From contig CM000154.2 of assembly GCA_000004695.1 (NCBI GenBank), positions 2,848,001-2,912,000 on the forward strand: DNA of 64,000 nt, written 5' to 3'. Within the stretch, counting starts at the first letter, position 1. Each line of letters opens with the position of its first letter. Of this stretch, positions 12,682 to 38,584 are shown piece after piece. Made by a program: the position numbers and the translations under genes. Origin of the DNA: Dictyostelium discoideum. Its lineage: Eukaryota. Under the pieces are notes generated by a model. The model worked only from the letters and a program-made list of their open reading frames with translations, did not search any database and had not been told where the DNA came from.

Positions 12682-14469
12682 ATGGATTTATTAACAGCAT
12701 ACGATGACTCTGATGAAGAAGAGTTAACAAATACAAATACAAATACAAATACGAATACAACCACAACCACAACAACAACAACTACAACTACAACAGAAAC
12801 TACACCAACAATAAATAACAACAACAACAACAACAATAATAATAGTAATAAAACTATAACATCATTTAAACCAAGTAATTTAGCACCAATAGTAACATCA
12901 ATAAGAGTTGTAGAAAATAAAATTAATCCAAATGATAAGATATTATTATATAATCCAACAGTGGAAAGTTTAGAAGGTGATATATTTGGACCAAAGAAAC
13001 CATTTTCATCAAATGATAAAAAATTAGATCCTAAATTTAAAAATCATACAAATGGTTTGGTTGAAGATTATCATATAAATGATTATGCATTCAATCAACA
13101 GGTATTATCATTTAAAACTAATGGTTATTCAGAGAATCCAAATAATAGTACAGAGTTTATTGGTCATAGAAAAGATGAAAATGATCATACCAAAAAGAAT
13201 AATAATAATAATAAAAATAAAGATAAAAGAAAAAGAAATATAACAGATGATCCATCAAATGTTAATGGATATTTAGGACCATGGGGCACCACTAAAGCAG
13301 AATTAGATTTTAAACAAGGTAGAGAGAATGATATGGTTTCAATTGAAACTGATTTAACTGAACAACAAAGAGCATTTATGGATTCACGTGTTAAAAAACA
13401 AAAAGGTAAAGATGAAGAAGGTGGTGATATTGATTCAACTGCGGCAGCTTTATCAAATACATCAATATTTCATGGTAAATCAAAGAAGGATTATATGGGT
13501 AGATCTTGGGTTGACCCACCAAGTGATCTTAGATTGGTCACACCTGATACATTTGTACCAAAGAAATTGATTCATAATTATACTGGCCATACCAAAGGTG
13601 TTGCTGCTATTAGATATATACCAAAGTATGGTCATTTATTATTATCAGCTGGTATGGATAATACTGTAAAGATTTGGGATGCCTATGGCGACCGTCGTTG
13701 TATTCAAACCTATATGGGCCATTCACAGGCAGTTAGGGATATTTGTTTCTCAAATGATGGTCGTAGATTCCTAAGTTGTGGATATGATCGTCAGACTCGT
13801 CTTTGGGATACAGAGACTGGTAAGATACTAAGTTCATTCACAAATGGTAAAATACCCTATTGTATCAAATTCAATCCAGATGATGATAAACAAGAACAAT
13901 TCCTTTGTGGTGGTTCCGATAAGAAAATCATTCAATGGGATATCAAATCCAATCAAATCGTTCAAGAGTATGATCAACATTTAGGCGCTGTCAATACAAT
14001 TACCTTCTTGGATGACAATCGTAGATTCGTCACCTCTAGTGATGATAAATCATTACGTGTTTGGGATTGGGGTATTCCAGTGGTCATTAAATATATTAGT
14101 GATCCTTCAATGCATAGTATGCCTGCCGTTGCATTACATCCAAAGGGTAAATGGTTCGCAGCTCAATCTTTAGATAATCAAATCTTAATCTATAGTGCTC
14201 GTGATAGATTCCGTATGAATAAAAAGAAACGTTTCTTGGGTCATAATGTTTCTGGTTACGCTTGTCAATTAGGTTTCTCTCCTGATGGTAAATTCATTTA
14301 TTCGGGTGATTCAACTGGTAAAGCTTTCTTTTGGGATTGGAAAACTTCAAAAATCATTAAAACAATTAATGCTCATAATAATGTTTGTATTGGTATTGAA
14401 TGGGCTCCCTTAGAACCTTCAAAAGTTGCAACTTGTAGTTGGAATAATGAAATTAAACTGTGGGATTAA
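12682..14469 (+). CDS. cdc40: Pre-mRNA-processing factor 17 (PRP17/CDC40), WD40-repeat spliceosomal protein, single exon
   Basis: Seven WD repeats (GHTKGVAAIRYIPKYGHLLLSAGMDNTVKIWD...LRVWDW...) colinear with human CDC40. The N-terminus is T/N-rich. Confidence 0.85.
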   Translation: MDLLTAYDDSDEEELTNTNTNTNTNTTTTTTTTTTTTTETTPTINNNNNNNNNNSNKTITSFKPSNLAPIVTSIRVVENKINPNDKILLYNPTVESLEGDIFGPKKPFSSNDKKLDPKFKNHTNGLVEDYHINDYAFNQQVLSFKTNGYSENPNNSTEFIGHRKDENDHTKKNNNNNKNKDKRKRNITDDPSNVNGYLGPWGTTKAELDFKQGRENDMVSIETDLTEQQRAFMDSRVKKQKGKDEEGGDIDSTAAALSNTSIFHGKSKKDYMGRSWVDPPSDLRLVTPDTFVPKKLIHNYTGHTKGVAAIRYIPKYGHLLLSAGMDNTVKIWDAYGDRRCIQTYMGHSQAVRDICFSNDGRRFLSCGYDRQTRLWDTETGKILSSFTNGKIPYCIKFNPDDDKQEQFLCGGSDKKIIQWDIKSNQIVQEYDQHLGAVNTITFLDDNRRFVTSSDDKSLRVWDWGIPVVIKYISDPSMHSMPAVALHPKGKWFAAQSLDNQILIYSARDRFRMNKKKRFLGHNVSGYACQLGFSPDGKFIYSGDSTGKAFFWDWKTSKIIKTINAHNNVCIGIEWAPLEPSKVATCSWNNEIKLWD

Positions 14470-17400
14470 AAATAATTATAATAATAATATTAATAATAAT
14501 AAAAAAAAAAAAAAAACTAGATAGAAATTATTTTATTTATTTTGTTTTATTTATTTTTATTTGTTTTTTTATTTATTTTATTTCATTTATTTTATTTTAT
14601 TTATTTGTTTTATTATTATTTTTTAATTATTATGATTTTTATTTTTTTTGGTTATTGTTACCCATTTCATCATCGTCATTGTTATCCATTTCATCATCAT
14701 CATTGTTATCCATTTCTTCATCATAGAAGTCATCCTCCTCATCATTTCCACCCTTGGGTACAACAAAAAATTCATCTTCACTTTGTTCATCACTATCATC
14801 ATTATTATCATCATGATTATCTTTGTTGTTGTCTTGATCAGAGTTTTGAATTGATTGATTTGAATTATTATTTATTTGATTTGATTTATATATATGATCA
14901 AAATCAATTGTTGTGTGTATTAAAAATTTTTCCCAAGTATTATCTTTTGCTAAAACCTTATAGGTACCAATAACGTATAAACCTAACTTGGCTCTTGTTA
15001 GTGCTACATTGATACGTCTACGATCTGAGAGGAAACCAATACCAAATTTTTCGATTGATCTTACACATGACATAATGATGATATCTTTTTCTGAACCTTG
15101 AACACCATCAATTGTTGAAACTGAAATATTTAAATTATGATGTTCAGATCTATTTAGTTGTTCTTTGATTTGATTCATTTGTAATTTATAGGGAGTAATT
15201 ATACCAAATGATAGCTTTTTACATTCTGGATATTTTTCAATTAGTTCCTTTATTAAAGTAAATACCTTATCAATTTCATCTTGATTCATTATGGATTTTT
15301 TAATAACTTTTTGATTTGATTTTGGTAAATCAAAAAATTTCATCGGTCCAAATGAAGGATCGAAATGGAATTTACAATTGTTATAGGAATCTATTGAAAC
15401 GTTTTCACCATCTTTTAAAGTTCCGTTATAGAATTCTTCAGATATGAATTTTGATGTCACTGGATGCATACGATATTGTGTATTTAAAAATTGGACATCG
15501 ATCGATTTGGCTAATCTTTCAAATAATGATATTTTTAAACCACAGTCAGCACCTTGTTTGGAAAAAATAGTTGGTGGCAATTGAACTGGATCACCAACTA
15601 AAATTAACTTTTTAACAGAACCTAATGATAGTGGAATAATTGAGGTTGGTTCTGAAGATTGCGTAGATTCATCAATCAAAACAATATCTGGAGAAAAGTT
15701 TTCAAAAATAGCCTTTGAACCACTTCCAGCTAAAGTTGAGAAAACAATAGACGCTGATTTGATGAGGTTAATTCTTCTTGATGAATTTTTATTTTTAAGA
15801 GAAATTTTTTGACATTCTGGTGATATTTTTTCTTTTCTGCCAGTTCTAACCATGTTTGGTTTAAATATTTGACCATCACTATTTAATAGATTTTTTAAAC
15901 ATCTTTTTGCAACTTCATCTACTGATGCATGTGAAGGACCACATACCAAAATTTTGAACTTTTTGTCAATAGCTAATAAAACTGAAAGTAAATAATTGAT
16001 GGTTGTGGTTTTACCTGTACCTGGTGGACCTTGAATCAATGTTATACCACTCTCAACTAAAGATGATTTAATAGCATTAAGTTGTGATTCATTTAATTTT
16101 TCTTTACAAATTGTTTCCAAGGTTGGTGGGAATTTCATCATTTTTTGGTTCAAATTATTATTGCACCCTGGATTAAAAATAAGATTTTTAATAAATGGTG
16201 ATGCCTTAAATTCTTGAATGCTTCTAATGAATGTTACACTATTTGAAATTTTATTATAATGAATTGATGATTGAGTACTTGAATTTAATGACTTAGTAAA
16301 AAAGTGTGTTGGATTTGAATATAACAAATCGCAAACTATTGATTGTTGATGTAGGCTACCTTGCATTAAATTTGAAGTTTTTCTTACTATTCCAAATGTA
16401 AATTTTGTGCCATCTAAGCCTATTACTTTGAATAATAATATATCACCTACTGAAATTTCTTCCAGTTTATTTCTATTACCATGAATGATTAGTTCAACAG
16501 TTATAAATTTAGTTTGACGACTTATTTGGACAACTTCAATTGCTTCATTCATTTTAATTTTATCGAAACCTTCAAAAGTTCCATCTTTTGCACTATTAAT
16601 CCCATTAAGTGCATTAATTCCATTTTCAACTTGAGCTCTAAAGTCATCGAAAATTAATGGTTTATTTACTATTTGGTATTCTTTTTCTCCTGTATAATTA
16701 TCTGATAATTCACCTATACCATTTGGTTTTAGCAATGGTATTTTCGAAGGTTCACAACTTAAAATTAGATTTAAAGTTTCATCTGGACTTATTGATATTA
16801 CATCAACATAACTGTATATGTAATCAGCCTTAATCTTTGTATTATTATTATTATTATCATTATTATTTGATTTTTTGGTTCCAATGCTATGGACAGATAT
16901 TGTTTCATTTTTAAATAATTGATGAATTTCAATAAATAATAATTCTAAAACAGTTTCTAATCTTTCAGATTCATTCAATTGAAAATTTGGAATCTTTATT
17001 ATTGGAGATATCTTTGATTGAAAATCTTGAATCATTGTAACTTTAGATTTCTCTAAACACCTTGGATCGAATTTAATTTTGTTTTTTGCTAATTCACTTT
17101 TTAAATCATTGAAGGTAGTTCTATTACCTTTTGTTAAATTCCTTAACTCTATATTCTGGTAGTGATGATTAAACTCTATTAAAGCCATTAATGTTAATGT
17201 TTTTTGATATATCAAATTGACAGAACTTTTACGACTTAAATTTTCAGAGGGAATCAATTGATTTAGAGTTCTATTACAATTATTAATCTGTTGTTCAAAT
17301 GATTTTGTATCTTCTTCAATGATCCTTTTTAATTTGTTTAATTTGTTTTGGTTATTGTTTTCATTCTTTAATAATTTATTCAATTCATTGAGAATAAAAA

Positions 17401-18901
17401 GAACACTCTTAGGATCTTCAAATATTTTCATTAATAAACTATTTTTTAAACTTTTTTCAATATCAATTGTACTAGCTATTGGATTTGATAATGTTTGTTT
17501 TGGAGTTGTTATCATATCTAGTTTTGGTAAAGCAATTGTAGCTGGTATTGAAGTTGGGACAGCCGCTGGTGTTGTTGTTAATGTTGGTACAACTTGGTTT
17601 GTAGTAGTAGTTGTATTTAAACTTGGAGTTGGTAACAATGGGACCAATTTTGGAAGTGATATATCTTTGAATAATTCATTAATATCTTTAAACTTTTTTA
17701 ATCTTATTGAGTTTTCCATATGAATAAATTCAACAATAATTCTAAAGAAAGAATTTTGGATTGAAGAAGCAATATTTCTATCTGTTACAAAAGGATCCAA
17801 TACGATCATAGTACTTTTTAGCAAATCTTCATTAACAAGGGATGATCTTTTAAGTAATGGGCCATTTTTACATAGTGTACCACCGCCACTTGAATGACTG
17901 ATTGAAATAATATTCTCCTTATAGTTGAAAATTGAATAGTAGTTAAAGAATAGGTAGAAAAGTTGATCAATTTTTAATTTATTTTTACTTGAATCAAACT
18001 TATCAAAACTTTTAAATTCATAAAATTCAAAAGAATCAATTCGTTTTAAAATTGGATTTGTTGAATAGCTATTTAATAGTTGAGGTGATTTAGTTTGTAA
18101 ATTTGGTAGAATTGGTGTACTAATCGATTGAAGGAAGTGAATTACCATATTAACCAAACAGAAGGAACTAAATGTATGTTTTGATGCGTCATTCAAATTT
18201 TTACAGCTTGCCCACCATTTAACCAATAATGATAGAATGATATATCTATTATCTATGGAACAATATTCTTTCAATAATAATGAATTAAAATAAGCCTTTG
18301 ATGAATTGCAGCTCATATCGAAATGATACTTTGATGATTTCTCTACAAACCTAATTATTGGTACAGTTGCACTTAATCTCTTTTCAATGATTGTGTATAA
18401 CTTTGTTGACTCTAAATATTTGGAAACCACCTCTAAATGAGTTACTTGATTTTCATTTTGATTGATTTTGAAATTAACATCTAAATCACTACCCTCTAAT
18501 GATAATCCAGTTAAAAATGAACCATAGAGTTGAATAGATGAATCCTTAAATTTATTTGATAAAAACATTTCCAATCTATTGAAACTTTTTTCCTTTTTAC
18601 TAACTCTTTTACATTTAATTTTGTTGAATAGGATAATAAGATCATGGGTTATAGCTTTTTGATGTTTTGGAATTTGATAATTTAAATAAAAATCTGGTAT
18701 ATATTCCTTTAAATAATATGCCATATTTAATATATTTTTTTTAAAATCATTACTATGATATCCTTCTTCAGTAGGTTGTTCTTTTCTAAAGGCCTCAAAT
18801 AGTTTTATTGGGTAATCATCACCAATATTTTTTCTACTCTCAGTTTTATTTTCATTAAATTCTTTGTAAATGTTGTTGAAAATTGTAATTTCATCATTAT
18901 T

Positions 18902-18948
<47 letters not shown>

Positions 18949-20147
18949 TATCATTATCATTATTATTATTATAATTATTATTATTATTTAAAGTATTTGA
19001 GTTTGAGTTTGAGTTTGAGTTTGAGGTTGGTTTTTGAGTTTGAGTTTGAGGTTGAGATTGCGTTTGTGTGATTTTTATAACATCTGGAACCTGTTTTAAA
19101 ATGCCAGTAGCCAATGAAGTTTCTTTTAATAATCTAACCTCTTCAAATAGATTTTTAATGGTCATGATTATATTTCCACCATCGAAAGGAAGAGAAAAAT
19201 TAGGGATTTCAAAATAAATAGATGCACCATCAATGATTTCAATTGGTTTTGAAAATTCACTAAGATTTCTTGTAAATATTTTCTTAATTCCAAATCTTGA
19301 CTGAACACTTTCCAATATTGCTGAACATTTTGAAAAATTTAATCCATAAGCTTTGCAATGCTCTTTTAAATATTTTCTTTGACAAAAAAAATTAAATTCA
19401 ATGACCATTCTTAGAACAAGATATTGATTGTAAAAAATACTTGATTTAATTGATTCATTGGATTGATTTTTTAACATTGCCTTCAAACTATGTAATAATT
19501 TACCTAATAAACCATCTCTTCTACTTTTAGATTTTTTAACAAAATCTTTCATTAAATTTAATTCTATTTCATTGCCTTTAAATTGATTTTTAAAACTATC
19601 TATTACTTGAATTTGATCATTAATATCGATTTCTTTGAAAACCAATTCAAAAATATTATTCCTTTGCGCTTTTTTGATTATTAAAAAAAAAAAAGAAAAA
19701 AAAAAAAAAAAAAAATTAATATAAATAAATATATAAATAAATAAATAAATAAATAAGTAAATAATAAAAAAATAAATAAATGATAAATAATAATTAAATA
19801 AATTATCTAAAAATTAATATTAAAAAAATATTTACACATCTTGGTTTATTTATTTATTTATTCAATAAATAAAAAAAAAAGTTGAAAATTAAATGTAAAA
19901 AATGATTTAAATATTTTTTTATAGGGAGAAGTTTAAAAAAAAAAAACGATTTAAATTTTTTTTTTATAGGTTTTGTTTTTTTTTTTTTGAATCAAGGGAA
20001 AATTTTAAAAAAAAAAAAAAAAAAAAAATTTTAAAAATCGTAAAATTCATCAATTATTAAAAAATCTGAGACATGAAAATTATAATGGACATAATTAAAA
20101 AATAATTTATTATTATTTTATTTATTTGGTTTATTTTGTTTTATTTT
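14412..20147. repeat. Tandem segmental duplication, unit 1 (about 5.7 kb: last 57 bp of the PRP17 CDS, its 3' flank, and the NTase-helicase gene)
   Basis: 20148..20219 repeats 14412..14483 (PRP17 3' end ...EPSKVATCSWNNEIKLWD*) at about 90% identity. The gene bodies are colinear. Confidence 0.85.
14639..19645 (-). CDS. Nucleotidyltransferase (Cid1/Gld2/TUTase-like PAP/OAS1 family) fused to a Upf1-like SF1 RNA helicase, copy A (1668 aa, intact)
   Basis: NTase core LYGSFLTGLSLEGSDLDVNF (GS...DxD) plus downstream FDMS and a PAP-associated region. SF1 motifs: I LIQGPPGTGKTTTI, II VLIDESTQ, III LILVGDPVQLPPT, V VSTIDGVQGSEKDIIIMSCVR, VI GFLSDRRRINVALTRAKLGLYVIG. Acidic C-terminal tail. Confidence 0.8.
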
Positions 20148-23100
20148 AGAACCTTCAAAAGTTCCAACTTGCAGTAGCGATAATGAAATTAAACTGTGGG
20201 ATTAAAAATAATTATAATAAAAAAAAAAAAAAACAAGATAGAAATTATTTTATTTATTTTATTTTATTTATTTTATTTTTATTTTTATTTATTTTTTTTA
20301 TTTTATTTATTTTATTTATTATTATTATTTTTTATTATCATGATTTTTATTTTCTTTGTCGTTGTTGCCCATTTCATCATCGTCATTGTTATCCATTTCA
20401 TCATCATTGTTATCCATTTCTTCATCATCATAAAAGTCATCCTCCTCATCATTTCCACCCTTGGGTACAACAAAAAATTCATCTTCACTTTGTTCATCAC
20501 TATCATCATTATTGTCATCATGATTATTATTATTATTATTATTATTTGTTATTTCTCCACCATTATTTTCATTCTTTATCTCTAATTGATTTTCATTTTC
20601 TTTTTTATTTTCATTTTCATTTTCATTTTTATTTTCATTTTTATTTTCGTTTTCGTTTTCATTTTCATTTTCATTTTTATTTTTATTTTCATTTTCATTT
20701 TTATTTTCATTTTCATTTTCATTTTCACTTTTATTATCAATAGTATTATTATTATGATTATCTTTGTTGTCTTGGTTAGAGTTTTGAATTGATTGAATTG
20801 AATTATTATTTATTTGATTTGATTTATATATCTGATCAAAATCAATTGTTGAGTATTTTAAAAAATTTCCCCAAGTATTATCTTTTTCTAAGACCCAAGA
20901 GGTACCAATAACGTATAAACCTAACTTGGCTCTTGTTAGTGCTACATTGATACGTCTACGATCTGAGAGGAAACCAATTCCATATTTTTCGGTACATCTT
21001 ACACATGACATGATAATGATATCTTTTTCTGAACCTTGAACACCATCAATTGTTGAAACTGAAATATTTAAATAACGATGTTCAGATCTGTTTAATTGTT
21101 CTTTGATTTGAATCATTTGTAATTTATAGGGAGTAATTATACCAAATGATAGCTTTTTACATTCTGGATATTTTTCAATTAGTTCCTTTATTAAAGTAAA
21201 TACCTTATCAATTTCATCTTGATTCATTATGGATTTTTTAATAACTATTTGATCTGATTTTGGTAAATTAAAAAATTTCATTGGCCCGAATGAAGGATCG
21301 AAATGGAATTTACAATTGTTAAAGGAGTCTATCGAAACATTTTCACCATCTTTTAAAGTTCCGTTATAGAATTCTTCAGATATGAATTTTGATATCACTG
21401 GATGCATACGATATTGTGTATTTAAAAATTGGACATCGATCGATTTGGCTAATCTTTCAAATAATGATATTTTTAAACCACAGTCAGCACCATCTTTTGA
21501 AAAAATAGTTGGTGCTAATTGAACTGGGTCACCAACTAAAATTAACTTTTTAATAGAACCTAATGATAGTGGAATAATTGAGGTTGGTTCTGAAGATTGT
21601 GTAGATTCATCAATCAAAACAATATCTGGAGAAAAGTTTTCAAAAATAGCCTTTGAACCACTTCCAGCTAAAGTTGAGAAAACAATAGAGGTTGACTTGA
21701 TGAGGTTAATTCTTCTTGATGAATTTTTATTTTTAAGAGAAATTTTTTGACATTCTGGTGATATTTTTTCTTTTCTGCCAGTTCTAACCATGTTCGGTTT
21801 AAAATTTTGACCATCACTATTTAATAGATTTTTTAAACATCTTTTTGCAACTTCATCTACTGATGCATGTGAAGGACCACATACCAAAATTTTGAACTTT
21901 TTGTCAATAGCTAATAAAACTGAAAGTAAATAATTGATGGTTGTGGTTTTACCTGTACCTGGTGGACCTTGAATCAATGTTATACCACTCTCAACTAAAG
22001 ATGATTTAATAGCATTAAGTTGTGATTCATTTAATTTTTCTTTACAAATTGTTTCCAAGGTTGGTGGGAATTTCATCATTTTTTGGTTCGAATTATTATT
22101 ATTATTATTATTATGTCCTGGATTATAAATAAGATTTTTAATAAATGGTGATGCCTTAAATTCTTGAATGGTTCTAATGAATGTTACACTATTTGAAATT
22201 TTAATATAATCAATTGATGATCTAGTGCTTGGATTTAATGATAAAGTAAAAACATATGTTGGATTTGAATCAAACAAATCACAAACTATTGATTGTTGAT
22301 GTAGGCTACCTTGCATTAAATTTGAAGTTTTTCTTACTATTCCAAATATAAACTTTGTGCCATCTAAGCCTATTACTTTGAATAGTAATATATCACCTAC
22401 TGAAATTTCTTCCAATTTATTTCTATTACCATGAATGATAAGCTCAACAGTTTCAAATTCAGTTTGACGACTTCTTTGGACAACCTCAATTGATTCATTC
22501 ATTTTAATTTTATCGAAACCTTCTAAAGTACCATCTTTTTTACTTAGAATGATCCCATTGAGTGCATTAATTCCATTTTCAACTTGAGCTCTAAAGTCAT
22601 CGAAAATTAATGGTCTCATTAAGTTTTGATATTGTTTATCTCCTGTAAAATTATCTGATAATTCATCAATACCAGTTGCTCTTAGCAATGGTATTTTCGA
22701 AGGTTGACAACTTAAAATTAGATTTAATGTTTCTTCTGGACTTATTGACATTACATCAACATAATCGTATATGTAATTAGCCTTATTATTATTATTATTA
22801 TTATTATTATTTTTTGATTTTTGTATCACGAATACAGAACCTGTTTCCATTTGAAATAATTGATGAATTTCATTAAATAATAATTCTATAACAGTTTCTA
22901 ATCTTTCAGATTCATTCAATTGAAAAGTTGGAATCTTTATTATTGAAGAGATCTTTGATCGAAAATCTTTAATCATTGTAATTTTATCCTCTTTTATACT
23001 CTTTGGATCGAATTTAATTTTGCTTTTTGCTAATTCACTATTTAAATCATTGAAATTAGTTCTATTATCTTTTGTTAAATTCCTTAACTCTATATACTGG

Positions 23101-24846
23101 TAGTGATGATTAAACTCTATTAAAGCCATTAATGTTAATGTTTTTTGAAATATCAAATTGACAGAACTTTTACAACTTGTATTTTCAGAGGGAATCAATT
23201 GTTTTAGAGTTTTATTACAATTACTAATCTGTTGACTAAATGAGTCTTTTTCTTCTTCAATGATTTTTTTTAATTTGTTTAATTGATTTCGGATATTGTT
23301 TTCATTTTTTAATAAATTTTCCAATTCACTGAGAATAAAAACAACATTCTGTGGATTTTGAAATATTTTCATTAATAAACTATTTTCTAAACCTTTTTCA
23401 ACATTTATTGTAGCTGGTTTTGAAGTTTTAGTTGTTAGTGGAGTTGGTTTTGAGGTTGAATTTGTAGTTGTTGTTGTAGTTGGTGGAGCTGGTTTTGAAG
23501 TTGAATTTGTAGTTGAAGTTGGAGTTGGTGCAACTGTTTTTGTAATATTGGTATTTGTAGTTGTATTTGTAATCGGTAACAATGAAACTAGTGTTGGAAG
23601 TGATATATCTTTGAATAATTCATTAATATCTTTAAACTTTTTTAATCTTATTGAGTTTTCCATATGAATAAATTCAATAATAATTCTAAAGAAAGAATTT
23701 TGGATTGAAGAAGCAATATTTCTATCTGTTATAAATGGATCCAATACGATCATAGTACTTTTTAGCAAAGCTTCATTAACAAGGGATGATCTTTTAAGTA
23801 GTGGGCCATTTTTACATAATGAACCGCCGCCACTTGAATGACTGATTGAAATAATATTCTCTTTGTAGTTGAAAATTGAATAGTAGTTAAAGAATAGGTA
23901 GAAAAGTTGATCAATTTTTAATTTATTTTTACTTGAATCAAACTTATCAAAACTTTTAAATTCATAAAATTCAAAAGAATCAATTCGTTTTAAAATTGGA
24001 TTTGTTGAATAGCTATTTAATAGTTGAGGTGATTTAGTGTGTAAATTTGGTAAAATTGGTGTACTAATCGATTGAAGGAAGTGAATTACCATATTAACCA
24101 AACAGTAAGAACTAAATGTATGTTTTGATGCATCATTCAAATTTTTACAGCTTGTTCACCATTTAACCAATAATGATAGAATGATACATCTATTATCTAT
24201 GGAACAATATTCTTTCAATAATAATGAATTAAAATAAGCCTTTGATGAATTGAAACTCATATCGAAATGATACTTTGATGATTTCTCTACAAACCTAATT
24301 ATTGGTACAGTTGCACTTAATCTCTTTTCAATGATTGTGTATAACTTTGTTGACTCTAAATATTTGGAAACCACCTCTAAATGAGTTACTTGATTTTCAT
24401 TTTGATTGATTTTGAAATTAACATCTAAATCACTACCCTCTAATGATAATCCAGTTAAAAATGAACCATAGAGTTGAATAGATGAATCCTTAAATTTATT
24501 TGATAAAAACATTTCCAATCTATTAAAACTATTTTCCTTTTTACTAACTCTTTTGCATTTAATTTTGTTGTATATGATTTCAAGATCATGGTTTACAATT
24601 TTTTGATGTTTTGGAATTTGATTATTTGAATTAGGATCTGGTATAAAATTCCTTGAATAATATGCCATATTTAATATATTATGTTTAAAATCATTACTAT
24701 AATATCCTTCTTCAGTTGGCTTTTCTTTTTTAAAAACCTCTAATAGTTTTATTGGGTAATCATCACCAATATTTTTTCTACTTTCGTTTCTATTTTCATT
24801 AAATTCTTTGTAAATGTTGTTGAAAATTGTAATTTCATCATTATTT

Positions 24847-24899
<53 letters not shown>

Positions 24900-25995
24900 G
24901 TTGTTGTTATTATTGGTTAAAGTGTTTGGTGATTTTGATTGCGTTTGTGTGATTTTTGTAACCTTTGGTACCATTTCTAAAACACCAGTACCCAATGAGG
25001 TTTTTTTTAATATTGTAACCTCTTCACGTAGATTTTTAATGGACATGATAATATTTCCACCTTCGAAAGGAAGAGAAAAATTAGGGATTTCTAAATGAAT
25101 AGCACCATCAATGATTTCAATTGGTTTTGAAAATTCACTTGGATCTCTTGTCAATAGTCTCTTTGTTCCACCTAATCTTGAATGAATATTATCCAATTTT
25201 GGTGAATATTTTGAAATATTTAAACCATTGGTTTCACAATACTCTTTGAAATAAATTCTTTGATAATAAAAATTAAATTCGATGATCATTCTAAAAACAA
25301 GATATTGATTGTAAAGAATACTTGATTTAATTGATTTAAAGGATTGTTTTTTAAACATGGTCTTCAAATGACTTGATATTCCACCTCCTAAACTATTTCT
25401 TCTACTTTTAGATTTTTTTATAAAATCTTTCATTAAATTTAATTTTATTTCATTGCCTTTAAATTGATTTTTAAAACTATCTATTACTTGAATTTGATCA
25501 TTAATATCGATTTCTTTGAAAACCAATTCAAAAATATTATTTCTTTGCGCTTTTTCGATTATTAAAAAAAAAAAAAAAATTAGTTGACATATTTAAAAAA
25601 ATAAATCAAAAAATAAATAAATAATAAATAATAAATAATTAATATTTTAAAAATATTTACCCATCTTAATTTATTTATTTATTGAAGCTGTGTTCAATAT
25701 AGAATAAATAAATATAAAAAGTTTAAAATTAAATAATTTTTAAATTTATTATTACAGGCTTTGTTTTTTTTTTTTGAATTAAGGGAGAAGCTTTTTTTTT
25801 TTGAAAAGATTAAAAAAAAAAAATAAAAAATAAAAAAAAATAAAAATCTTTTTCAATCGTAAAATTCATCAATTAATATTTTCTATCTGAGATAAGAAAA
25901 TTTTAATAAACAACATAATTAAAAAACAATTATTTTTTAGTATTTAATTTTTTTTGGTTCAATTATTTTATTTTTATTTTATTTTATTTTTTTTA
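20148..25995. repeat. Tandem segmental duplication, unit 2 (diverged copy, 5.8 kb)
   Basis: Colinear with unit 1. The 5' flank 25861..25990 matches 20042..20147. Confidence 0.8.
20325..25526 (-). pseudogene. NTase-Upf1-like helicase fusion, copy B: in-frame TGA (W to stop) at 24156-24158, plus a coding hexanucleotide-repeat expansion; possible pseudogene or split gene
   Basis: ORFs 24156..25526 (456 aa, NTase part) and 20325..24140 (1271 aa, helicase part) are in the same frame. Copy A reads LLVKWWASCKNLNDASK where copy B reads LLVKW*TSCKNLNDASK. Confidence 0.75.
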
Positions 25996-26593: not shown

Positions 26594-27725
26594 ATGGAAT
26601 GTGAAGATGTTCGACCTATAGTTATTGATAATGGTTCTGGTATGTATAAAGCTGGTTTTGCTAGTGATGATGCTCCACGTACAATTTTTCCATCAATTGT
26701 TGGTCATCCAAAGTGCAATGGTTTTATGGTTGACATAGATCAAAAAGATTCATATGTTGGTGATGAAGCTCAATCAAAAAGGGGTATTCTAAATGTTAAA
26801 TATCCAATTGAACGTGGTATTATTACCAATTGGGATGATATGGAAAAAATCTGGTATCATACTTTTTATAATGAACTTGGTGTTTCCTATGGAACATCCA
26901 GTTCTCTTAACTGAACCACCACTAAATCCAAATAAAAATAGAGAGAAAATGACTCAAATCATGTTTGAAACTTTCAATACTCCTGAATTGTATGTTGCAA
27001 TTCAAGCTGTATTATCATTATATGCTTCTGATCGTACAACTGGTATCGTTTTGGATTCAGGTGATGGTGTTTCCCATACCGTACCGGTTTATGGTAGTTA
27101 TGCATTACCTCATGCAATTAGACGTTTACATTTAGCTGGTGGTGATCTTACTGATTACATGTGTAGAATGTTAAACTTTGAACGTTGTTACTCATTCACA
27201 ACAACTACTGAAAGAGAAGTAGTTAGAGGTATTAAAGAGAAATTAGCATATGTTGCATTGGATTTTGGAGCTGAAATGCAAACTGCAGCCTCATCATCTG
27301 CATTAGAGAAATCATATGAATTACCAGATGGCCAAGTTATTACAATCGGTAATGAACGTTTCCGTTGTCCAGAAGCACTTTTCCAACCGTCATTATTGGC
27401 TATGGACTATGATGGTATTCATGAAACAATCTATAATTCAATCATGAAATGTGATGTTGGTATTCATAAAGATTTATTTGGTAGTGTTGTATTATCAGGT
27501 GGTTCAACTATGTTCCCTGGTATTGCAGATCGTATGAATAAAGAATTAACTGCACTTGCACCATCAACAATGAAAATTAAAATTATTGCACCACCAGAAC
27601 GTAAATACTCTGTATGGATTGGTGGTTCAATTTTAGCTTCAGTTTCAACTTTCCAACAAATTTGTATTTCAAAAGAAGAATATGACGAATCTGGTCCATC
27701 AATTGTTCACAGAAAATGTTTCTAA
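26594..27725 (+). pseudogene. Actin-family gene copy 1 with a 2-nt deletion frameshift near 26885 ([41 protein letters not shown]...)
   Basis: ORFs 26594..26914 and 26793..27725 are both actin-like but in different frames. The other copies read [13 protein letters not shown] where this one reads [11 protein letters not shown]. Confidence 0.75.
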
Positions 27726-27807
27726 TTTTTTAAAAGAAAAAAAATATATTTTTAAATCGAATCTAAAATTAGTTTTGGTCTGTGAAGTTGGCAAAAGAAA
27801 ATTAGCG

Positions 27808-27845
<38 letters not shown>

Positions 27846-28087
27846 AATAACATATTGATGGAATATATCTTCTTTCATTAATTTTATAATCAAATTAAAT
27901 TTATTTCTCTTTTTTTAAATTATTACTTTATTTTTAAATTTCTACTTTTTTTTTTTTTTTTTTTATTTTAAAATCTTGGTGGCAATTAAAAAAAATAAAA
28001 TAAAACAAAAATAATAAATAATAATAAAATTTAAAAACTAAATAAAAATTAATTTGCATTATCCAATATTATTTATTTATTTGTTTA

Positions 28088-28138
<51 letters not shown>

Positions 28139-28149
28139 GATACTATTTT

Positions 28150-28275
28150 TGATTTGATTTTGTTAATTAAATTCAATTTGATTTGGTTTGATTTGATTTG
28201 ATTTGATTTGGTTGGGTTCGATTTGATTTGATTTAATTTGATTTGATTCGATTTGATTTGATTTGATTTACTTTT
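28150..28275. repeat. (GATTT)n pentanucleotide microsatellite in the actin intergenic region
   Basis: gatttgatttgatttgatttg... ORF 28069..28344(-) is simply this repeat translated (KSNQIKSNQIK). Confidence 0.9.
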
Positions 28276-28727
28276 TTTTATGCAAAAATTGCGTTTTAAA
28301 TATTTTCTTAATTTTTTAATTTTTTTAAAAAAAAAAAATTTCAAGTTTTTTTTTTTTAAAAATATTATTTTTTTTTTGTATTAAGATAATAAAAAGTAAT
28401 TCAACTCAATTTGACTATGATTCTATGACGCTGACCCCTCAGATTTTTCAGTCAGTTAAAAAAACTTGAAATTTTCAGTTCTCTGTTAATTCATATTAAT
28501 TTCTGTTTATAAAAATTACATATTATTTTAAATATATACTCCACATGTTTATAATTATTATTTTTTTTTTTTTTATTGGTAAAAAAAAAAAAAATAAAAA
28601 AATAAAAAAATTAACAGTTTATTTTAATAAACCTTAAATAATTTAAAATCATTAATAAAAAAATAAAAAAACAATACAGAGTTATATATCACAAATAATA
28701 ATCAAATAATAATCAAAATAATATAAA

Positions 28728-29861
28728 ATGGAATGTAAAGAAGACCTAACAATAGTTATTGATAATGGTTCTGGTATGTGTAAAGCTGGTTTTGCTGGTT
28801 ATGATGCTCCACATGCAGTTTTTCCATCAATTGTTGGTCGTCCTAGACATACTGGTGTTATGGTTGGTATGGGTCAAAAGGATTCATATATTGGTGATGA
28901 AGCTCAATCAAAAAGGGATATTCTAAATCTTAAATTTCCAGTTGAGCGTGGTATTATTACCAATTGGAATGATATGGAAGAAATCTGGCATCATACTTTT
29001 TATAATGAACTTCGTGTTGCTCCAGAGGAACATCCAGTTCTCTTAACTGAACCGCCATTAAATTCAAAAGCAAATAGAGAGAAAATGCCTCAAATCATGT
29101 TTGAAACTTTCAATACTCCTGCAATGTATGTTGCAATTCAAGCTGTATTATCATTATATGCATCTGGTCGTGCAACTGGTGTCATTCTGGATTCAGGTGA
29201 TGGTGTTTCTTATACTGTACCAGTTTATGAAGGTAATACATTTCCACTTTCAATTACACGTTTACATTTAGCTGGTGGTGATCTTACTGATTACATGAGT
29301 AGATTATTATACACTGATTGTGGTTACTACTTTTCAACAAAAGCTGAAAAAGAAATAGTTAAAGATATTAAAGAGAAATTAGCATATGTTGCATTGGATT
29401 TTGAAGCTGAAATGCAAACTGCAGCCTCATCGCCTTCATTAGAGAAATCATATAAATTACCAGATGGTCGAATGATCACAATTGGTAATGAACGTTTCCG
29501 TTGTCCAGAAGCACTTTTCCAACCATCATTATTGGCTATGGACTATGATGGTATTCATGAAACAACCTATAATTCAATCATGAAATGTGATGTTGATTTT
29601 CATAAAGATTTATATGGTAATGTTTTATTATCAGGTGGTTCAACTATGTTCCCAGGTATTGCAGATCGTATGAATAAAGAATTAACTGCACTTGCACCAT
29701 CAACAATGAAAATTAAAATTATTGCACCACCAGAACGTAAATACTCTGCATGGATTGGTGGTTCAATTTTAGCCTCACTTTCAAGTTTCCAACCAAGGTG
29801 GATTTCAAAAGAAGAATATGACGAATCTGGTCCATCAATTGTTCACAGAAAATGTTGGTAA
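28728..29861 (+). CDS. Divergent actin paralog, copy 2 (377 aa, intact)
   Basis: Full-length actin fold. About 80% identical to conventional actin. Ends HRKCW. Confidence 0.8.
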
Positions 29862-30256
29862 TTTTTTAAAAGAAAAAAAAAAAAATACTATTTTTTTAAT
29901 TAAATAAGAAATATATAAATGGTTGTTTAAAATTATTACCATGAATATTATAAGAATTACTATTTTTAAATATATAAACTGAGATGTAAATTAATAAAAT
30001 AATTTATTTTGCCAGAATGTAATAATTATATCTCACTAATAAAAATATCCATATAAGGAAATATTAAAAAAAAAAAAAAAAAACAGAAAATTTACATTCA
30101 TTTTTTTTATATTTTAAATCATTGATGATTTACACGTGCATTCTGAATATTTTCCTTGTTTTTTATTTTTTTTTTTTTTTTTTAATTATATAAAATTTTG
30201 TTTTTAAGTTTTTTTTTTTTTTTTAAGCAAAATATTTATTTTTCAAATTACAACAT

Positions 30257-30360
30257 TATGACAACCAAAAGTGATTTCTATGGGGCTGACCCCTTAGATT
30301 TTTCAGTTATTTAAACTTAAAAAAACTTGAAATTTTTAATTTCTCTGTTACTTAATATTA
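30257..30360 (+). promoter_or_regulatory. Conserved actin upstream element (...GCTGACCCCTTAGATTTTTCAG...CTTGAAATTTTnAnTTCTCTGTTAcTTnATATTAAT), about 150-250 bp 5' of the copy 3 ATG
   Basis: The same roughly 80-100-bp block recurs at 26318..26390 (copy 1) and 28417..28500 (copy 2), and a fragment at 34052..34100. It is conserved while the surrounding poly(A/T) DNA is not. Confidence 0.5.
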
Positions 30361-30510
30361 ATTTCATATTATTTTAAATATATATGTTCATTATTATTAT
30401 TATTAAAAAAAAAAAAAATTAATTTTTTTAAAATAAACCTAAAATAATTTAAAATCATAAAAAACCAACAATAAGGAACATATATCAAATAATAATCAAA
30501 ATAATATAAA

Positions 30511-31668
30511 ATGGAATGCGAAGAAGTTCAAGCCATAGTTATTGATAATGGTTCTAGTGTGTGTAAAGCTGGTTTTGGTGGTGATGATGCTCCTCGTACA
30601 GCTTTCCCATCAATTGTTGGTCGTCCAAGATGTACTGGTTTTATAGTTGATATGGATAAAAAAGATTCATATTTTTGTAAAAAGAATTCGTGTTTTATGG
30701 GTCAAAAGGATTTATATATTGGTGATGAAGCTCAATCAAAAAGAGGTATTCTAAATGTTAAATATCCAATTGAACGTGGTATTATTACAAATTGGAATGA
30801 CATGGAAGAAATCTGGTATCATACTTTTTATAATGAACTTCATGTTGCTCCAGAGGAACATCCAGTTCTCTTAACTGAACCACCATTAAATCCAAAAGCA
30901 AATAGAGAGAAAATGACTCAAATCATGTTTGAAACTTTCAAAACCCCTGCAATATATGTTGCCAATCAAGGTGTATTATCATTATATTCTACTGGTCTTA
31001 CAACTGGTATCGTTATGAATTCGGGTGATGGTGTTTCTCATACTGTGCCAGTTTATGAAGGTTATATTTTACGTCAAGCAATTTTAAGTTTAGATTTAGC
31101 TGGTCGTGATCTTACTGATTACATGAATGAATTATTAACTGATCGTGGTTACTACTTTACAACAAAGGGTGAAAAAGAAATAGTTAGAGGTATTAAAGAG
31201 AAATTATCATATGTTGCATTAGACTTTGAAGCTGAAATGCAAATTGCCTCCGCATCGCCTGCATTAGAGAAATCATATGAATTACCAGACGGTCAAGTTA
31301 TTACAATTGGTAATGAACGTTTCCGTTGTCCAGAAGCACTTTTCCGACCATATACTGGTATTCATGAAACAATCTATAATTCAATCATGAAATGTGATGA
31401 TGATATTCGTAAAGATTTATTTGGTAGTGTTGTATTATCAGGTGGTTCAACTATGTTTCCAGGTATTGTAGATCGTATGAATAAAGAATTAACTGCACTT
31501 GCACCATCAACAATGAAAATTAAAATTATTGCACCACCAGAACGTAAATACTCTGTATGGATTGGTGGTTCAATTTTAGCCTCACTTTCAAGTTTCCAAC
31601 CAAGGTGGATTTCAAAAGAAGAATATGACGAATCTGGTCCATCAATTGTTCACAGAAAATGTTTCTAA
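30511..31668 (+). CDS. Divergent actin paralog, copy 3 (385 aa; 9-aa insertion FCKKNSCFM in the D-loop region and a 6-aa deletion near residue 270)
   Basis: Intact ORF but with indels relative to its neighbours. It is possibly non-functional. Confidence 0.65.
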
Positions 31669-32319
31669 AAAAAAAAAAAAAAAAAAATTAGTTAAATTAA
31701 TAAAATAAAATAAAAATTATAAAAACAAAAAAAAAAACAAAAAAAAAAAAAAAGTATGGTAAAATAAAAATAAAATAAAAATTATAAAAACAAAAAAAAA
31801 AAAAATTAAAAAAAAAAAAAAATAGAATTAGTTTCTTGTCGATAAAAGAAATAATCACTCATATAAATTTTTTTCACTAGTGACATAATTTTGGCTCTAG
31901 TTACGTAATATATTATAGTAAAGCATTCGCTGAAAAAAAAAAGGTTAAAAATTAAAAAATAAAACAAAAAAAAAAAAAAAACAAAAAACTAAAAGTCTAA
32001 AAGTATGTTTCGTTGAAAAAAAAAAATTTTGAGCAGATGATCATGATCTTTTTTTTTTTGATGACCATTTTTTAAAAATAAATAAAAAAAAAAATAGAGA
32101 AAAAAAGTATGGTTTTTATTTAATCACATAAATAGTTGTTGCATCATTGTTTTTTGTTTTTCTATTTTTATTTTTTTTTTTTTTTATTTTTTTTTTTTAT
32201 TCCCACACAGAATAACGTCTATTCGTGTTTTTCTATTTTTATTTTTATTTTTTTTTTAATCAAAATTAAAATTATTTTTAAATCAATTTTAATTCGTAAT
32301 TTCAAGATATAAGGAATAT

Positions 32320-32329
32320 CCATATAAGG
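32320..32329 (+). promoter_or_regulatory. CArG box (CCATATAAGG, matching CC(A/T)6GG) 19 bp upstream of the ATG of actin-like copy 4
   Basis: Exact match to the SRF/MADS-box consensus. Identical boxes occur at 30049..30058, 33962..33971 and 35053..35062 (the last is 19 bp upstream of the copy 6 ATG). Confidence 0.5.
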
Positions 32330-32347
32330 AAATATTGTAAAAATAAA

Positions 32348-33466
32348 ATGGAAATTAATGTTCAAGCTATAGTTATTGATAATGGTTCTGATACGTGTAA
32401 AGCTGGTTTTGTTGGTGAAGAAGCTCCACATTCAGAGTTCCCATCGATTGTTGGTATTGATCAAAATGATTCATATGTTGGTAATGAAGCTCAATCAAAA
32501 AGAGGTATTCTAACTCTTAAATATCCAATTGAACGTGGTATTATTACCAATTGGGATGATATGGAAAAAATCTGGCATCATGCTTTTTATAATGAACTTG
32601 GTGTTGCTCCAGAGGAAAATATAGTAGTTTTATCTGAATCACCATTAAATCCAGAAGAAAATAGAGAGAAAATGGCTCAAATCATGTTTGAAACTTTCAA
32701 AACTCCTGCAATATATGTTGAAAACCAAGCTGTATTTTCGATTTATAATTCTGGTCGTATGACTGGTATCGTTCTGGATTCAGGTGATAGTGCTTCTCAT
32801 GTTGTACCAGTTTATGAAGGTCTTGCATTGCCACATGCGACTTCAAGTTTAGGTTTTGCTGGTTGTGATCTTACTGATCAAATGAGTTTATTATTAAATG
32901 ATCTTGGTTACAACCTTGAAAGAGAAATAGTTAGAGATATTAAAGAGAAACTATCATATGTTTCATCAGATTTTTCATGGGAAATTAACGATCCATCAAC
33001 ATTAGGGAAATCATATGAACTACCAGACGGTCAAGTTATTACAATTGATAAAGAACTTTTTGCTTGCCCAGAGGTACTTTTCCTCCCATATGCATTTTTT
33101 GGTACGAACCTTGATGGTATTGACAAAGCAATCTATAATTCAATCATGAAGTGTAATGATGATATTCATAATGATTTATATGGTAATGTTGTATTATCAG
33201 GTGGTTCAACTATGTTCCCAGGTATTGAATATCGTATGTATAAAGGATTAACACAACTTGCACCATCAACAACGGAAATTGTAATTAATGCAGAACCAGA
33301 TCGTAAGAACTCTGTATGGATTGGTGGTTCAATTTTAGGCTTAGTTCCAAATTTCCAAGAATTGTGTATTGACAAAGAAGATTATGATGAATATGGTCCA
33401 TCGTTTGTGAACTTAGTAAAAAGTTTTAGAGAACAAAATCACCAAAATTATTATGGTGAAAATTAA
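32348..33466 (+). CDS. Highly divergent actin-like protein, copy 4 (372 aa; [21 protein letters not shown]...; lacks about 12 aa of the DNase-I-binding loop; extended C-terminus)
   Basis: Actin fold is recognisable throughout. The segment [14 protein letters not shown] is missing. Confidence 0.75.
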
Positions 33467-33467
33467 C

Positions 33468-33509
<42 letters not shown>

Positions 33510-33628
33510 CAATTCCAGTTTTCTTCAAATTTTATTCTTAAAAATTATTTTTAAAATTATATTATTAATAAAAATGTTATAAATTTATGGGAAAATATTA
33601 TATTAATTTTTTTTGTTTTGGTAATAAT

Positions 33629-33680
<52 letters not shown>

Positions 33681-33810
33681 TTTTTTTTTTTTTTTTTTTT
33701 TTTTGTATAAATAATTATTTTTTAAATGAAAAAAAAAAATAAAAAAACTTTAAAAAATAAACAATAATTTATATATTCAAATAATAATCAAAATAATAAA
33801 AAAAAAAAAA

Positions 33811-34459
33811 ATGGAAAGTGAAGATGTTCAAGCTTTATTTTTTTTTTTTTTTCTTAGTTTATCAATTATCTACTATTTTTAAATATATAAACTGAGATGT
33901 ATATTAATAAAATAATTTATTTTGCCAGAATGTAATAATTATATCTCACTAATAAAAATATCCATATAAGGAGAATGTAATTATATAAAATTTTGTTTTT
34001 AAGTTTTTTTTTTTTTTTAAGCAAAATATTAATTTTTCAAATTACAACATTATGACAACCAAAAGTGATTTCTATGGGGCTGACCCCTTAGATTTTTCAA
34101 ATCTAGAAGCACTTTTCCGACCATCATTATTGGCTATGGGCTGTGGTGGTATTCATGAAACAATCTATAATTCAATCATGAAATGTGATTATGATATTCG
34201 TAAATATTTATTTGGTAGTGTGGTATTATCAGGTGGTTCAACTATGTTTCCAGGTATTGCAGATCGTATGAATAAAGAATTAACTGCACTTGCACCATCA
34301 ACAATGAAAATTAAAATTATTGCACCACCAGAACGTAAATACTCTGTATGGATTGGTGGTTCAATTTTAGCCTCACTTTCAAATTGTCAAGAAATGTGGA
34401 TTTCAAAAGAAGAATATGACGAATCTGGTCCATCAATTATTCACAGAAAATGTTTCTAA
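33811..34459 (+). pseudogene. Rearranged/chimeric actin pseudogene: 9 codons of an actin start (MESEDVQAL), then flank-derived DNA, then the C-terminal 130 aa of actin
   Basis: 33811..33837 matches the 5' end of the copy at 36652. 33860..33975 matches the 3' flank of copy 2 (29925..30058). 34052..34100 matches the upstream element of copy 3. ORF 34052..34459 fuses that element in-frame to the actin 3' third. Confidence 0.7.
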
Positions 34460-35052
34460 AAAAAATAGTTAAATTAATATAATAAAATAAAAATTATAAA
34501 AACAAAAAAAAAAAAACAAAAAAAAAAATTAAAAAAAAAAAAAAAATCATTTTTGAAACAAAAAATAGAATTAGTTTCTTGTCGATAAAAGAAATAACCA
34601 CTCATATAAATTTTTTTCACCAATGACATAATTTTGGCTCTATTTACGTAATATACCATTAAAGCATTCGCTGAAAAAAAAAAAGGTTAAAAAATAAAAC
34701 AAAAAAAAAAAAAAAAACAAAAAAACTAAAAGTCTAAAAGTATGGTTGGTTGAAAAAAAAAAATTTTGAGCAGATGATCATGATCTTTTTTTTTTGGTGG
34801 TCATTTTTTAAAAATAAATAAAAAAAAAAAATAGAGAAAAAAAGTATGGTTTTTATTTAATCACATAAATAGTTGTTGCATCATTGTTTTTTGTTTTTCT
34901 ATTTTTATTTTTATATTTTTTTTTTTTTTTTATTCCCACACAGAATAACGTCTATTCGTGTTTTTCTATTTCTATTTTTATTTTTTTTAAAATCAAAATT
35001 AAAATTATTTTTAAATCAATTTTAATTCGTAATTTCAAGATATAAGGAATAT

Positions 35053-35062
35053 CCATATAAGG
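35053..35062 (+). promoter_or_regulatory. CArG box (CCATATAAGG) upstream of actin-like copy 6
   Basis: Same element as at 32320, in the duplicated flank. Confidence 0.5.
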
Positions 35063-35080
35063 AAATATTGTAAAAATAAA

Positions 35081-36142
35081 ATGGAAATTAATGTTCAAGC
35101 TATAGTTATTGATAATGGTTCTGATACGTGTAAAGCTGGTTTTGTTGGTGAAGAAGCTCCACGTTCAGAGTTCCCATCGATTGTTGGTATTGATCAAAAT
35201 GATAAAGATTCATATGTTGGTAATGAAGCTCAATCAAAAAGAGGTATTCTAACTCTTAAATATCCAATTGAACGTGGTATTATTACCAATTGGGATGATA
35301 TGGAAAAAATCTGGCATCATGCTTTTTATAATGAACTTGGTGTTGCTCCAGAGGAAAATATAGTAGTTTTATCTGAATCACCATTAAATCCAGAAGAAAA
35401 TAGAGAGAAAATGGCTCAAATCATGTTTGAAACTTTCAAAACTCCTGCAATATATGTTGAAAACCAAGCTGTATTTTCGATTTATAATTCTGGTCGTATG
35501 ACTGGTATCGTTCTGGATTCAGGTGATAGTGCTTCTCATGTTGTACCAGTTTATGAAGGTCTTGCATTGCCACTTGCGACTTCAAGTTTAGGTTTTGCTG
35601 GTTGTGATCTTACTGATCAAATGAGTTTATTATTAAATGATCTTGGTTACAACCTTGAAAGAGAAATAGTTAGAGATATTAAAGAGAAACTATCATATGT
35701 TTCATCAGATTTTTTATGGGAAATTGACGATCCATCATTAGAGAAATCATATGAACTACCAGACGGTCAAGTTATTACAATTGGTAAAGAACTTTTAGCT
35801 TGCTCAGAGGGACTTTTCCTCCCATATGTATTTTTTGGTACGAACCTTGATGGTATTGACAAAGCAATCTATAATTCAATCATGAAATGTGATGTTGATA
35901 TTCATAATGATTTATATGGTAATGTTGTATTATCAGGTGGTTCAACTATGTTCCCAGGTATTGAATATCGTATGTATAAAGAATTAACACAACTTGCACC
36001 ATCAACAACGGAAATTGTAATTAATGCACCACCAGAACGTAAGAACTCTGTATGGATTGGTGGTTCAATTTTAGGCTTAGTTCCAAATTTCCCAGAATTG
36101 TGTTTTGACAAAGAAGATTATGATGAATATGGTCGGTTGTGA
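35081..36142 (+). CDS. Highly divergent actin-like protein, copy 6 (353 aa; paralog of copy 4; small deletion gives an earlier stop ...DYDEYGRL*)
   Basis: About 93% identical to copy 4 at the protein level, with the same D-loop deletion. Confidence 0.75.
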
Positions 36143-36498
36143 ACTTAGTAAAAAGTATAAGAGAAGAAATTCAGATAACAAACACAAATTCACAGTTAAA
36201 AAAATAAAATAAAAAAATAAAAAAATAAAAAAATAAATAATAAAATTTAATAAAATAAATTAAATAAACTATTTTTTAGGTTCTTTTGATTTATTTTTTG
36301 TAATTTTATTTTATTTTTATTTTATAATTTTATACAAATTTTAAATAATTTCAAAAAAAAAAAAATAAAAAAAAAAATTCAATTCCAGTTTTCTTCAAAT
36401 TTTATTCTTAGAAATTATTTTTAAAATTATATTATTAATAAAAATGTTATAAATTTATGTGAAAATATTATATTTATTTTTATTTGTTTTGTTATTAT

Positions 36499-36546
<48 letters not shown>

Positions 36547-36639
36547 TATAAATAATTATTTTTTAAATGAAAAAAAAAAATAAAAAACTTTAAAAAATAA
36601 ACAATAATTTATATATTCAAATAATAATCAAAATAATAA

Positions 36640-37782
<1,143 letters not shown>

Positions 37783-38517: not shown

Positions 38518-38584
<67 letters not shown>

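Follow-up and report, generated by a model that had tools for sequence, protein, structure and literature searches.

Non-canonical nucleotidyltransferases (NTases) of the Cid1, GLD-2, TUT4/TUT7 and URT1 kind are built from a palm domain, which carries a GS...DxD motif and a third aspartate, followed by a central or PAP-associated domain. In Cid1 the catalytic domain spans residues 56-165 and the central domain residues 166-377, with UTP bound in the cleft between the two; the triphosphate is contacted by K193, K197, S211 and Y212, and a nucleotide-recognition motif lies at residues 327-339 (PMC3479196). SF1 helicases cooperate with Cid1-family NTases on shared RNA targets in small-RNA pathways (PMC9276528). 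In the S. pombe RDRC (the helicase Hrr1, the NTase Cid12 and an RdRP) and in the C. elegans ZNFX-1/pUG-tailing system the helicase and the NTase are separate proteins, whereas the locus described here would encode, by analogy, a single-chain counterpart of these pairs, with a helicase that stands nearer to Sen1/Upf1 than to Hrr1/ZNFX1. The locus was found in a 64,000-nucleotide stretch of Dictyostelium discoideum DNA (henceforth the window, numbered from its first nucleotide), which displays nuclear Dictyostelium-type features, namely a GC content of 14-30%, long poly-Asn and poly-Asp tracts, short AT-rich introns and TAA as the usual terminator. A search of the literature on this gene and on Dictyostelium pseudogenes, nonsense-mediated decay (NMD) or read-through turned up nothing specific, and full-length protein searches combined with exact look-ups of three gene models and two ORFs recovered no conspecific protein.

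The window contains two head-to-tail units, A and B, which are 89.7% identical across a 5 kb core and each of which holds one copy of the gene (Table 1). This gene of about 1,700 codons has undergone a lineage-specific tandem duplication, and its predicted product joins a GLD-2/Cid1-type NTase to an Upf1/Sen1-like 5'-3' RNA helicase. Copy A is intact, with a single long ORF, and copy B is represented by two ORFs separated by one in-frame TGA; as had been noticed earlier, these two ORFs share one frame. Both are homologous to the single ORF of copy A. Two long ORFs in the same frame with one stop between them cannot have arisen by chance in DNA of about 25% GC. Upstream of both copies we found the motif AAGATG(G/T)/GTAAAT, a short intron and then ...AAAAAG/CGCAAAG (the slash marking the splice boundary), and the AAGATG(G/T)GTAAAT motif is also kept in the sibling genome of Dictyostelium cf. 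discoideum. Hence, each copy probably possesses a 4-nucleotide first exon followed by a short intron, in which case the spliced products would start with MAQRNN in copy B and MSQRNN in copy A. The TTG starts of the listed ORFs are artefacts of bacterial start-codon rules. Copy B retains a promoter-like flank in addition to its first exon and splice signals. Copy B also differs from copy A by a 77-codon Asn/Glu/Lys-repeat (NENENK...) insertion in the acidic C-terminal tail, and further in-frame length changes in low-complexity sequence are spread over both copies.

Table 1. Features of the NTase-helicase tandem pair, its surroundings and the corresponding locus of D. cf. discoideum. Positions are those of the window unless another sequence is named.
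Feature	Position	Strand	Remarks
Tandem duplication, head-to-tail	14410..25974	-	two units of ~5.8 kb
Unit B	25974..20146	-	
Unit A	20147..14410	-	
Copy A exon 1, inferred	19839..19836	-	ATGT; intron 19835..19669
Copy A exon 2	14639..19668	-	intact, NTase then helicase
Copy A listed ORF	19645..14639	-	single, 1668 codons
Copy A site matching the stop	18209..18214	-	intact, TGG GCA (Trp-Ala); TGG at 18214..18212
Copy A helicase core	15400..16540	-	
Copy B exon 1, inferred from sequence	25661..25664	-	ATGG
Copy B intron	25660..25550	-	GTAAAT...AAAAAG
Copy B exon 2 as far as the stop	24159..25549	-	N-terminal region and NTase palm domain
Copy B upstream ORF	25526..24156	-	456 codons
Copy B NTase palm domain	about 24587..24204	-	GS...DLD and third Asp in HFDMS
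Copy B in-frame TGA	24156..24158	-	in place of a conserved Trp, approximately W195 of Cid1
Copy B tandem GG to AA	24155..24156	-	coding strand; CC to TT on the + strand
Copy B open frame past the stop	20325..24155	-	1276 codons and TAA, without further stop or frameshift
Copy B downstream ORF	24140..20325	-	1271 codons as listed, same frame as the 456-codon ORF
Copy B TTG (Leu of NLND)	24138..24140	-	taken for an ATG start in the earlier note
Copy B first in-frame ATG past the stop	24090..24092	-	22 codons on, inside central-domain helix ...LVNMVIHFLQ
Copy B PAP_assoc (PF03828)	23724..23909	-	E=1.1e-7, 32.5 bits, cut-off 22.6
Copy B Upf1/Sen1-like SF1B helicase core	20901..22037	-	AAA_11 and AAA_12
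Copy B repeat insertion relative to copy A	~20330..20640	-	77 codons
Actin array	26594..39948	+	at least 7 genes in tandem
First actin gene of the array	26594..27725	+	split into overlapping ORFs of 106 and 310 aa that lie in different frames
Divergent actin copy	35081..36142		ends in TGA
D. cf. discoideum orthologue, pseudogene	L002 6708..11861		GCA_054859205.1
D. cf. discoideum syntenic actin	L002 5193..6075	-	205-aa and 61-aa ORFs

The NTase palm domain (PF22600) was recovered with E=1.6e-20 in copy B (residues 314-441) and 8.5e-20 in copy A, and the palm motifs YGSFLTGLSLEGSDLDVN and HFDMS are present in both copies. The Asp of HFDMS aligns with what we take to be the third catalytic aspartate of Cid1, D160. 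The PAP-associated domain of copy B lies 83-144 residues downstream of the stop, and alignments with the solved structures of TUT4, TUT7, GLD2, URT1 and Cid1 run unbroken across the stop (E=1e-30 to 1e-18), those with Cid1 and URT1 reaching as far as the DPF..DRN motif. At the site itself the structural homologues share a VK.WA motif (VIKKWAS and VVKEWAK in GLD2, FRYWAK in TUT4), and the GLD2 pattern VK.WA....NDAS...(F/L)SS(Y/F).LV.MVIHFLQ is matched nearly letter for letter. Two differences from Cid1 and its relatives stand out: the position equivalent to K197 of Cid1 is a Ser in copies A and B in our alignment, and, unlike the Cid1/GLD-2-type enzymes, the NTase here shares a single chain of about 1,700 residues with a helicase. 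Taken together these matches point to a Cid1/GLD-2-type non-canonical nucleotidyltransferase, for which template-independent 3' tailing activity may be predicted. On this alignment the stop falls at about residue 195 of Cid1, the conserved Trp of VK.WA, so that the equivalents of S211 and Y212 and of the recognition motif 327-339 would all lie downstream of it. The stop thus cuts the NTase unit in two and leaves an upstream half without the PAP-associated domain and NTP-binding residues. The earlier note had set the stop exactly between the NTase and helicase modules, with the whole NTase in the 456-codon ORF. We find instead that this ORF contains only the palm domain, that the stop is inside the NTase, and that the helicase core begins about 700 codons later.

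The assignment of the helicase to the downstream ORF does hold, its AAA_11/AAA_12 core being intact there. Searches of solved structures with the helicase region of copy A yielded Sen1 (1e-72), Upf1 (1e-58 to 1e-61) and also IGHMBP2, with ZNFX1 as a more distant match (1e-30). As in the Upf1, Sen1 and IGHMBP2 SF1B helicases, the AAA_11 and AAA_12 core displays Walker A, Walker B and Q/R motifs, here in the form GPPGTGKT, DE and RRINVALTRAK. It differs from Upf1 in that no CH or zinc-knuckle domain was detected in the proteins of the window and an NTase is attached instead. The enzymes of both copies are unremarkable representatives of the Cid1/GLD-2 and Upf1/Sen1 families. As a separate observation, when changes in the helicase core were polarised with D. 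cf. discoideum as the outgroup (O), 31 were assigned to the lineage of copy B and 12 to that of copy A. Copy B exceeds copy A in synonymous changes (15 against 5) as well as in nonsynonymous ones, although over the whole gene the totals are equal; the corresponding core distances are 0.044 for A-O, 0.068 for B-O and 0.046 for A-B. Local conversion, introgression or a rate difference are possible sources of this asymmetry.

The interruption of copy B had been described as an in-frame TGA standing against a TGG of copy A, and this is accurate: both are read on the minus strand and the peptides quoted for them were correct. Copy B reads ...TTG GTT AAA TGG TGA ACA AGC TGT AAA AAT TTG AAT GAT... 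and copy A reads AAA TGG TGG GCA AGC (18220..18206). Relative to copy A, therefore, TGG GCA has become TGA ACA, which combines a Trp-to-stop with an Ala-to-Thr change, and the surrounding 36-mer is otherwise identical in the two copies. Nearby codons do differ between them, for example TGT against TAT ten codons upstream and GAT against GAC eight codons downstream, and further downstream they can be told apart by peptides such as GTSWVLEKDNTWGNFLK in B and GTYKVLAKDNTWEKFLIH in A. D. purpureum, D. cf. discoideum, GLD2 and TUT4 all share with copy A the Trp that copy B has lost. D. purpureum displays LLVKYWAQQKDINDASKGTFSSFCLV, including VKYWAQQ, when its NTase module is aligned alone (we restricted the comparison to this module, as a global alignment is misleading owing to the permuted domain order described below), and the syntenic D. 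cf. discoideum locus reads AAATGGTGGGCAAGC, with TGGGCA in its DNA. These two outgroups show that TGG GCA is the ancestral state and that copy B is derived, and the GG to AA change is most simply a single mutational event. Two other readings of the TGA were rejected: 1) an intron across the stop, given the conserved, aligned codons on both sides and the lack of a usable GT...AG; and 2) genetic code 4 with TGA read as Trp, given that the other long ORFs contain 70 TGG codons and no internal TGA and usually end in TAA. TGA terminates 2 of the 25 long ORFs of the window. Neither allele of the 36-mer was found when metagenomes were scanned for it.

The best explanation of these observations, to which we assign a probability of roughly 0.7, is that copy B is a very young nonsense allele, or nascent duplicated pseudogene, created by the change of TGG GCA to TGA ACA. 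Throughout the 1741 codons (5.2 kb) of copy B we found no second stop or frameshift, and all 12 indels between A and B comprise whole codons. The two copies differ with a dS of 0.14 and an overall dN/dS of 0.62; the ratio is about 0.75-1 in the linkers, and for both enzymatic cores it drops to about 0.26 (P=6e-8 against 1; P=0.005 against 0.5). In a neutral simulation at a per-lineage dS of about 0.07, around 20 in-frame stops would be expected in copy B since the duplication, and one stop or fewer becomes likely only at neutral divergence below about 0.01-0.02. As the TGA is the sole lesion, the stop must be very recent. The duplication itself is younger than the split from D. cf. discoideum, since the A-B distance (0.098) is smaller than the A-O and B-O distances (0.126 each). 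When changes were polarised by the same outgroup, copy A had accumulated 43 synonymous and 105 nonsynonymous changes and copy B 45 and 108 plus the stop, with no sign of relaxed selection on lineage B relative to A (Fisher P=1); likewise, NTase replacements polarised by D. purpureum divide into 4 derived in A and 4 derived in B. Copy B was constrained like copy A until very recently, and if it has been inactivated at all, the lack of relaxed selection is compatible only with a very recent inactivation. Gene conversion between the copies was considered separately; the longest run without a synonymous difference is 97 codons (P=0.17), so that conversion is neither needed nor shown. Copy B resembles a duplicated (unprocessed) pseudogene in that it stands in tandem with an intact paralogue and is disabled by one substitution, in a gene whose orthologue in D. 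cf. discoideum is dead. Unlike such a pseudogene, it shows neither a further lesion nor an elevated dN/dS, the disabling lesion being the only hallmark seen so far. The suggestion of a fresh nonsense mutation in the earlier note is thus supported by the ancestral TGG of two outgroups, the absence of any other lesion and the unrelaxed selection.

If copy B is such a nonsense allele, its translation would end after 465 residues, and the product, a palm without the central/PAP-associated domain, would be expected to be catalytically dead. Beyond the stop the message would have about 3.8 kb that is not translated and, judging from other organisms, would be a likely target of NMD. No helicase would be made from copy B save by rare near-cognate read-through of the UGA, and copy A would stay the working gene. 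This combination of lost activity and NMD is what we infer for copy B by analogy. The intact flank and splice signals and the unrelaxed selection fit extreme youth, but they also fit an intact, mis-sequenced gene or a functional, recoded one.

A narrower form of the same explanation is that the mutation is real and private to the sequenced laboratory strain, having arisen, for example, through chemical mutagenesis or long axenic culture, with wild isolates retaining TGG. The extreme youth of the lesion agrees with this. Moreover, tandem G to A changes (CC to TT on the other strand) are a lesion type of alkylating agents or UV, and AX4, if it is the source strain, presumably descends from a nitrosoguanidine-treated line. 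However, adjacent substitutions are common across the A/B alignment, so that a tandem change is not diagnostic; 111 adjacent pairs were counted against an expectation of about 37, and many of these pairs fall in low-complexity stretches that align poorly. We consider this strain-private origin possible, though on the whole unlikely.

A sequencing or assembly error, the true copy B having TGG GCA (or TGG ACA) and being an intact second gene, is improbable. It would sit well with a copy that is otherwise flawless, having no frameshift in its whole length and no nonsynonymous excess, and local mis-assembly of two copies that are 90% identical is conceivable. Against this, two adjacent substitutions are unlike the typical homopolymer indel, both are G to A and thus in the direction that we would expect of real mutation in an AT-rich genome, and they stand within a 36-mer that is otherwise the same in A and B. 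The copies further differ at 1.7-9% of positions, enough to separate reads.

Functional recoding, in which the UGA is read as Trp by a near-cognate tRNA-Trp or as selenocysteine to give a low or regulated level of full-length copy B protein, appears very improbable. Of the three stops UGA generally leaks most, and Trp is among the residues inserted at it; the downstream frame is intact, and TGA is a rare terminator in the window. These points are offset by the following: 1) no SECIS element or other Rfam match was found in the window, and the RNA after the stop shows no stable or unusual structure (fold z=-0.22); 2) the context UGA-ACA(-AGC) is, to our knowledge, not a known read-through motif; 3) the ancestral residue in the homologues is Trp, rather than Cys or Sec; and 4) the lesion is too young to allow selection for recoding to be inferred. 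The chance that copy B is alive in one of two ways, either through low-level read-through of the UGA with Trp or through a 465-residue palm-only fragment that regulates copy A, we regard as slighter still; were it so, the stop would serve as a dosage switch for an RNA-tailing helicase that was duplicated not long ago.

Gene fission, by which copy B would yield an NTase and a helicase as separate useful proteins, is scarcely credible in spite of the long open frames and the intact helicase core downstream: the break leaves the palm on one side and the PAP-associated domain, the Ser/Tyr contacts and the recognition motif on the other, so that neither half is complete; the ATG that the earlier note placed six codons downstream is a TTG, the first ATG lying 22 codons on, within a conserved helix; eukaryotic ribosomes would hardly reinitiate once an ORF of 465 codons has been translated; all eight dictyostelid relatives have the helicase and NTase in one polypeptide; the split gene models of D. 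cf. discoideum are frameshift artefacts; and there has been too little time for the halves to evolve independently. For the same reason that the cut destroys the NTase rather than freeing it, the locus does not offer the natural experiment on the fusion that had been envisaged. With copy B as a young nonsense allele, the stop is a routine event, a textbook case of a tandem duplicate starting on the way to a pseudogene, and copy B should be annotated as a pseudogene or strain allele and not as two genes.

The family to which this locus belongs is of more interest than the stop, in that an Upf1/Sen1-like helicase and a GLD-2/Cid1-like tailing enzyme are fused throughout the dictyostelids. The same two enzymes are joined in D. 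purpureum (DICPUDRAFT_150267) and in seven further dictyostelid proteins, from Heterostelium, Acytostelium, Cavenderia and Polysphondylium violaceum, which are annotated as 'regulator of nonsense transcripts-like'. These proteins are 35-41% identical to those of the window and conserve the Trp at the mutated site. No separate intact NTase and helicase genes were found among the eight relatives. A word-indexed protein search with the 315-residue NTase region gave no match at E<=1e-20, though the D. purpureum protein is about 40% identical over 327 residues. The domain order differs: all eight relatives run helicase, palm, PAP_assoc, whereas copies A and B, and also the D. cf. discoideum pseudogene, run NTase and then helicase. 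Comparison of these sequences thus points to a domain permutation in the lineage of the window (14639..25664) relative to the other dictyostelids, and a tandem duplication followed by in-frame fusion and loss of the ends would explain it. In Acytostelium, Cavenderia and P. violaceum we find two nearby paralogues on one contig, judging by locus tags two to six apart, which suggests recurrent local duplication of the helicase-NTase family.

The fate of the gene in the sibling genome provides a parallel. A representative search recovered a 593-residue D. cf. discoideum protein with 90% identity to the copy A helicase, and the syntenic D. cf. discoideum locus (GCA_054859205.1) comprises actin genes, one NTase-helicase copy, a WD40 gene and GlnRS. 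This single copy is split into five ORFs; it carries one TAA and no fewer than 9 frameshifting indels, among them deletions of 8, 10 and 11 nucleotides in complex sequence, while the adjoining WD40 and GlnRS ORFs are intact and about 93% identical to those of the window (93.2% for the region). Given these many lesions between intact flanking genes, the orthologue is a true pseudogene, and its models as 922- and 593-residue hypothetical proteins are artefacts. The NTase-helicase gene is only 87.4% identical between the two genomes, below the figure for its WD40 and GlnRS neighbours, and, with its linkers at a dN/dS of about 0.75-1, is a gene that evolves fast. As the sole D. cf. discoideum copy is dead, this clade can dispense with the gene. 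Thus, an intact, a newly hit and a fully decayed copy occur within two sibling genomes, reflecting repeated duplication and death, and fast turnover of this sort is typical of genome-defence or RNA-surveillance genes.

Next to copy B lie at least seven actin genes arranged in tandem. The first of these adjoins copy B divergently and, being split into two overlapping ORFs in different frames, is frameshifted. In D. cf. discoideum the actin at the syntenic position is also fragmentary, so that from sequence the two look like a shared, older actin pseudogene present in both genomes. A further copy within the array is divergent; it terminates with TGA, and the final ~9 residues that normal actin has (...PSIVHRKCF) are missing from it.
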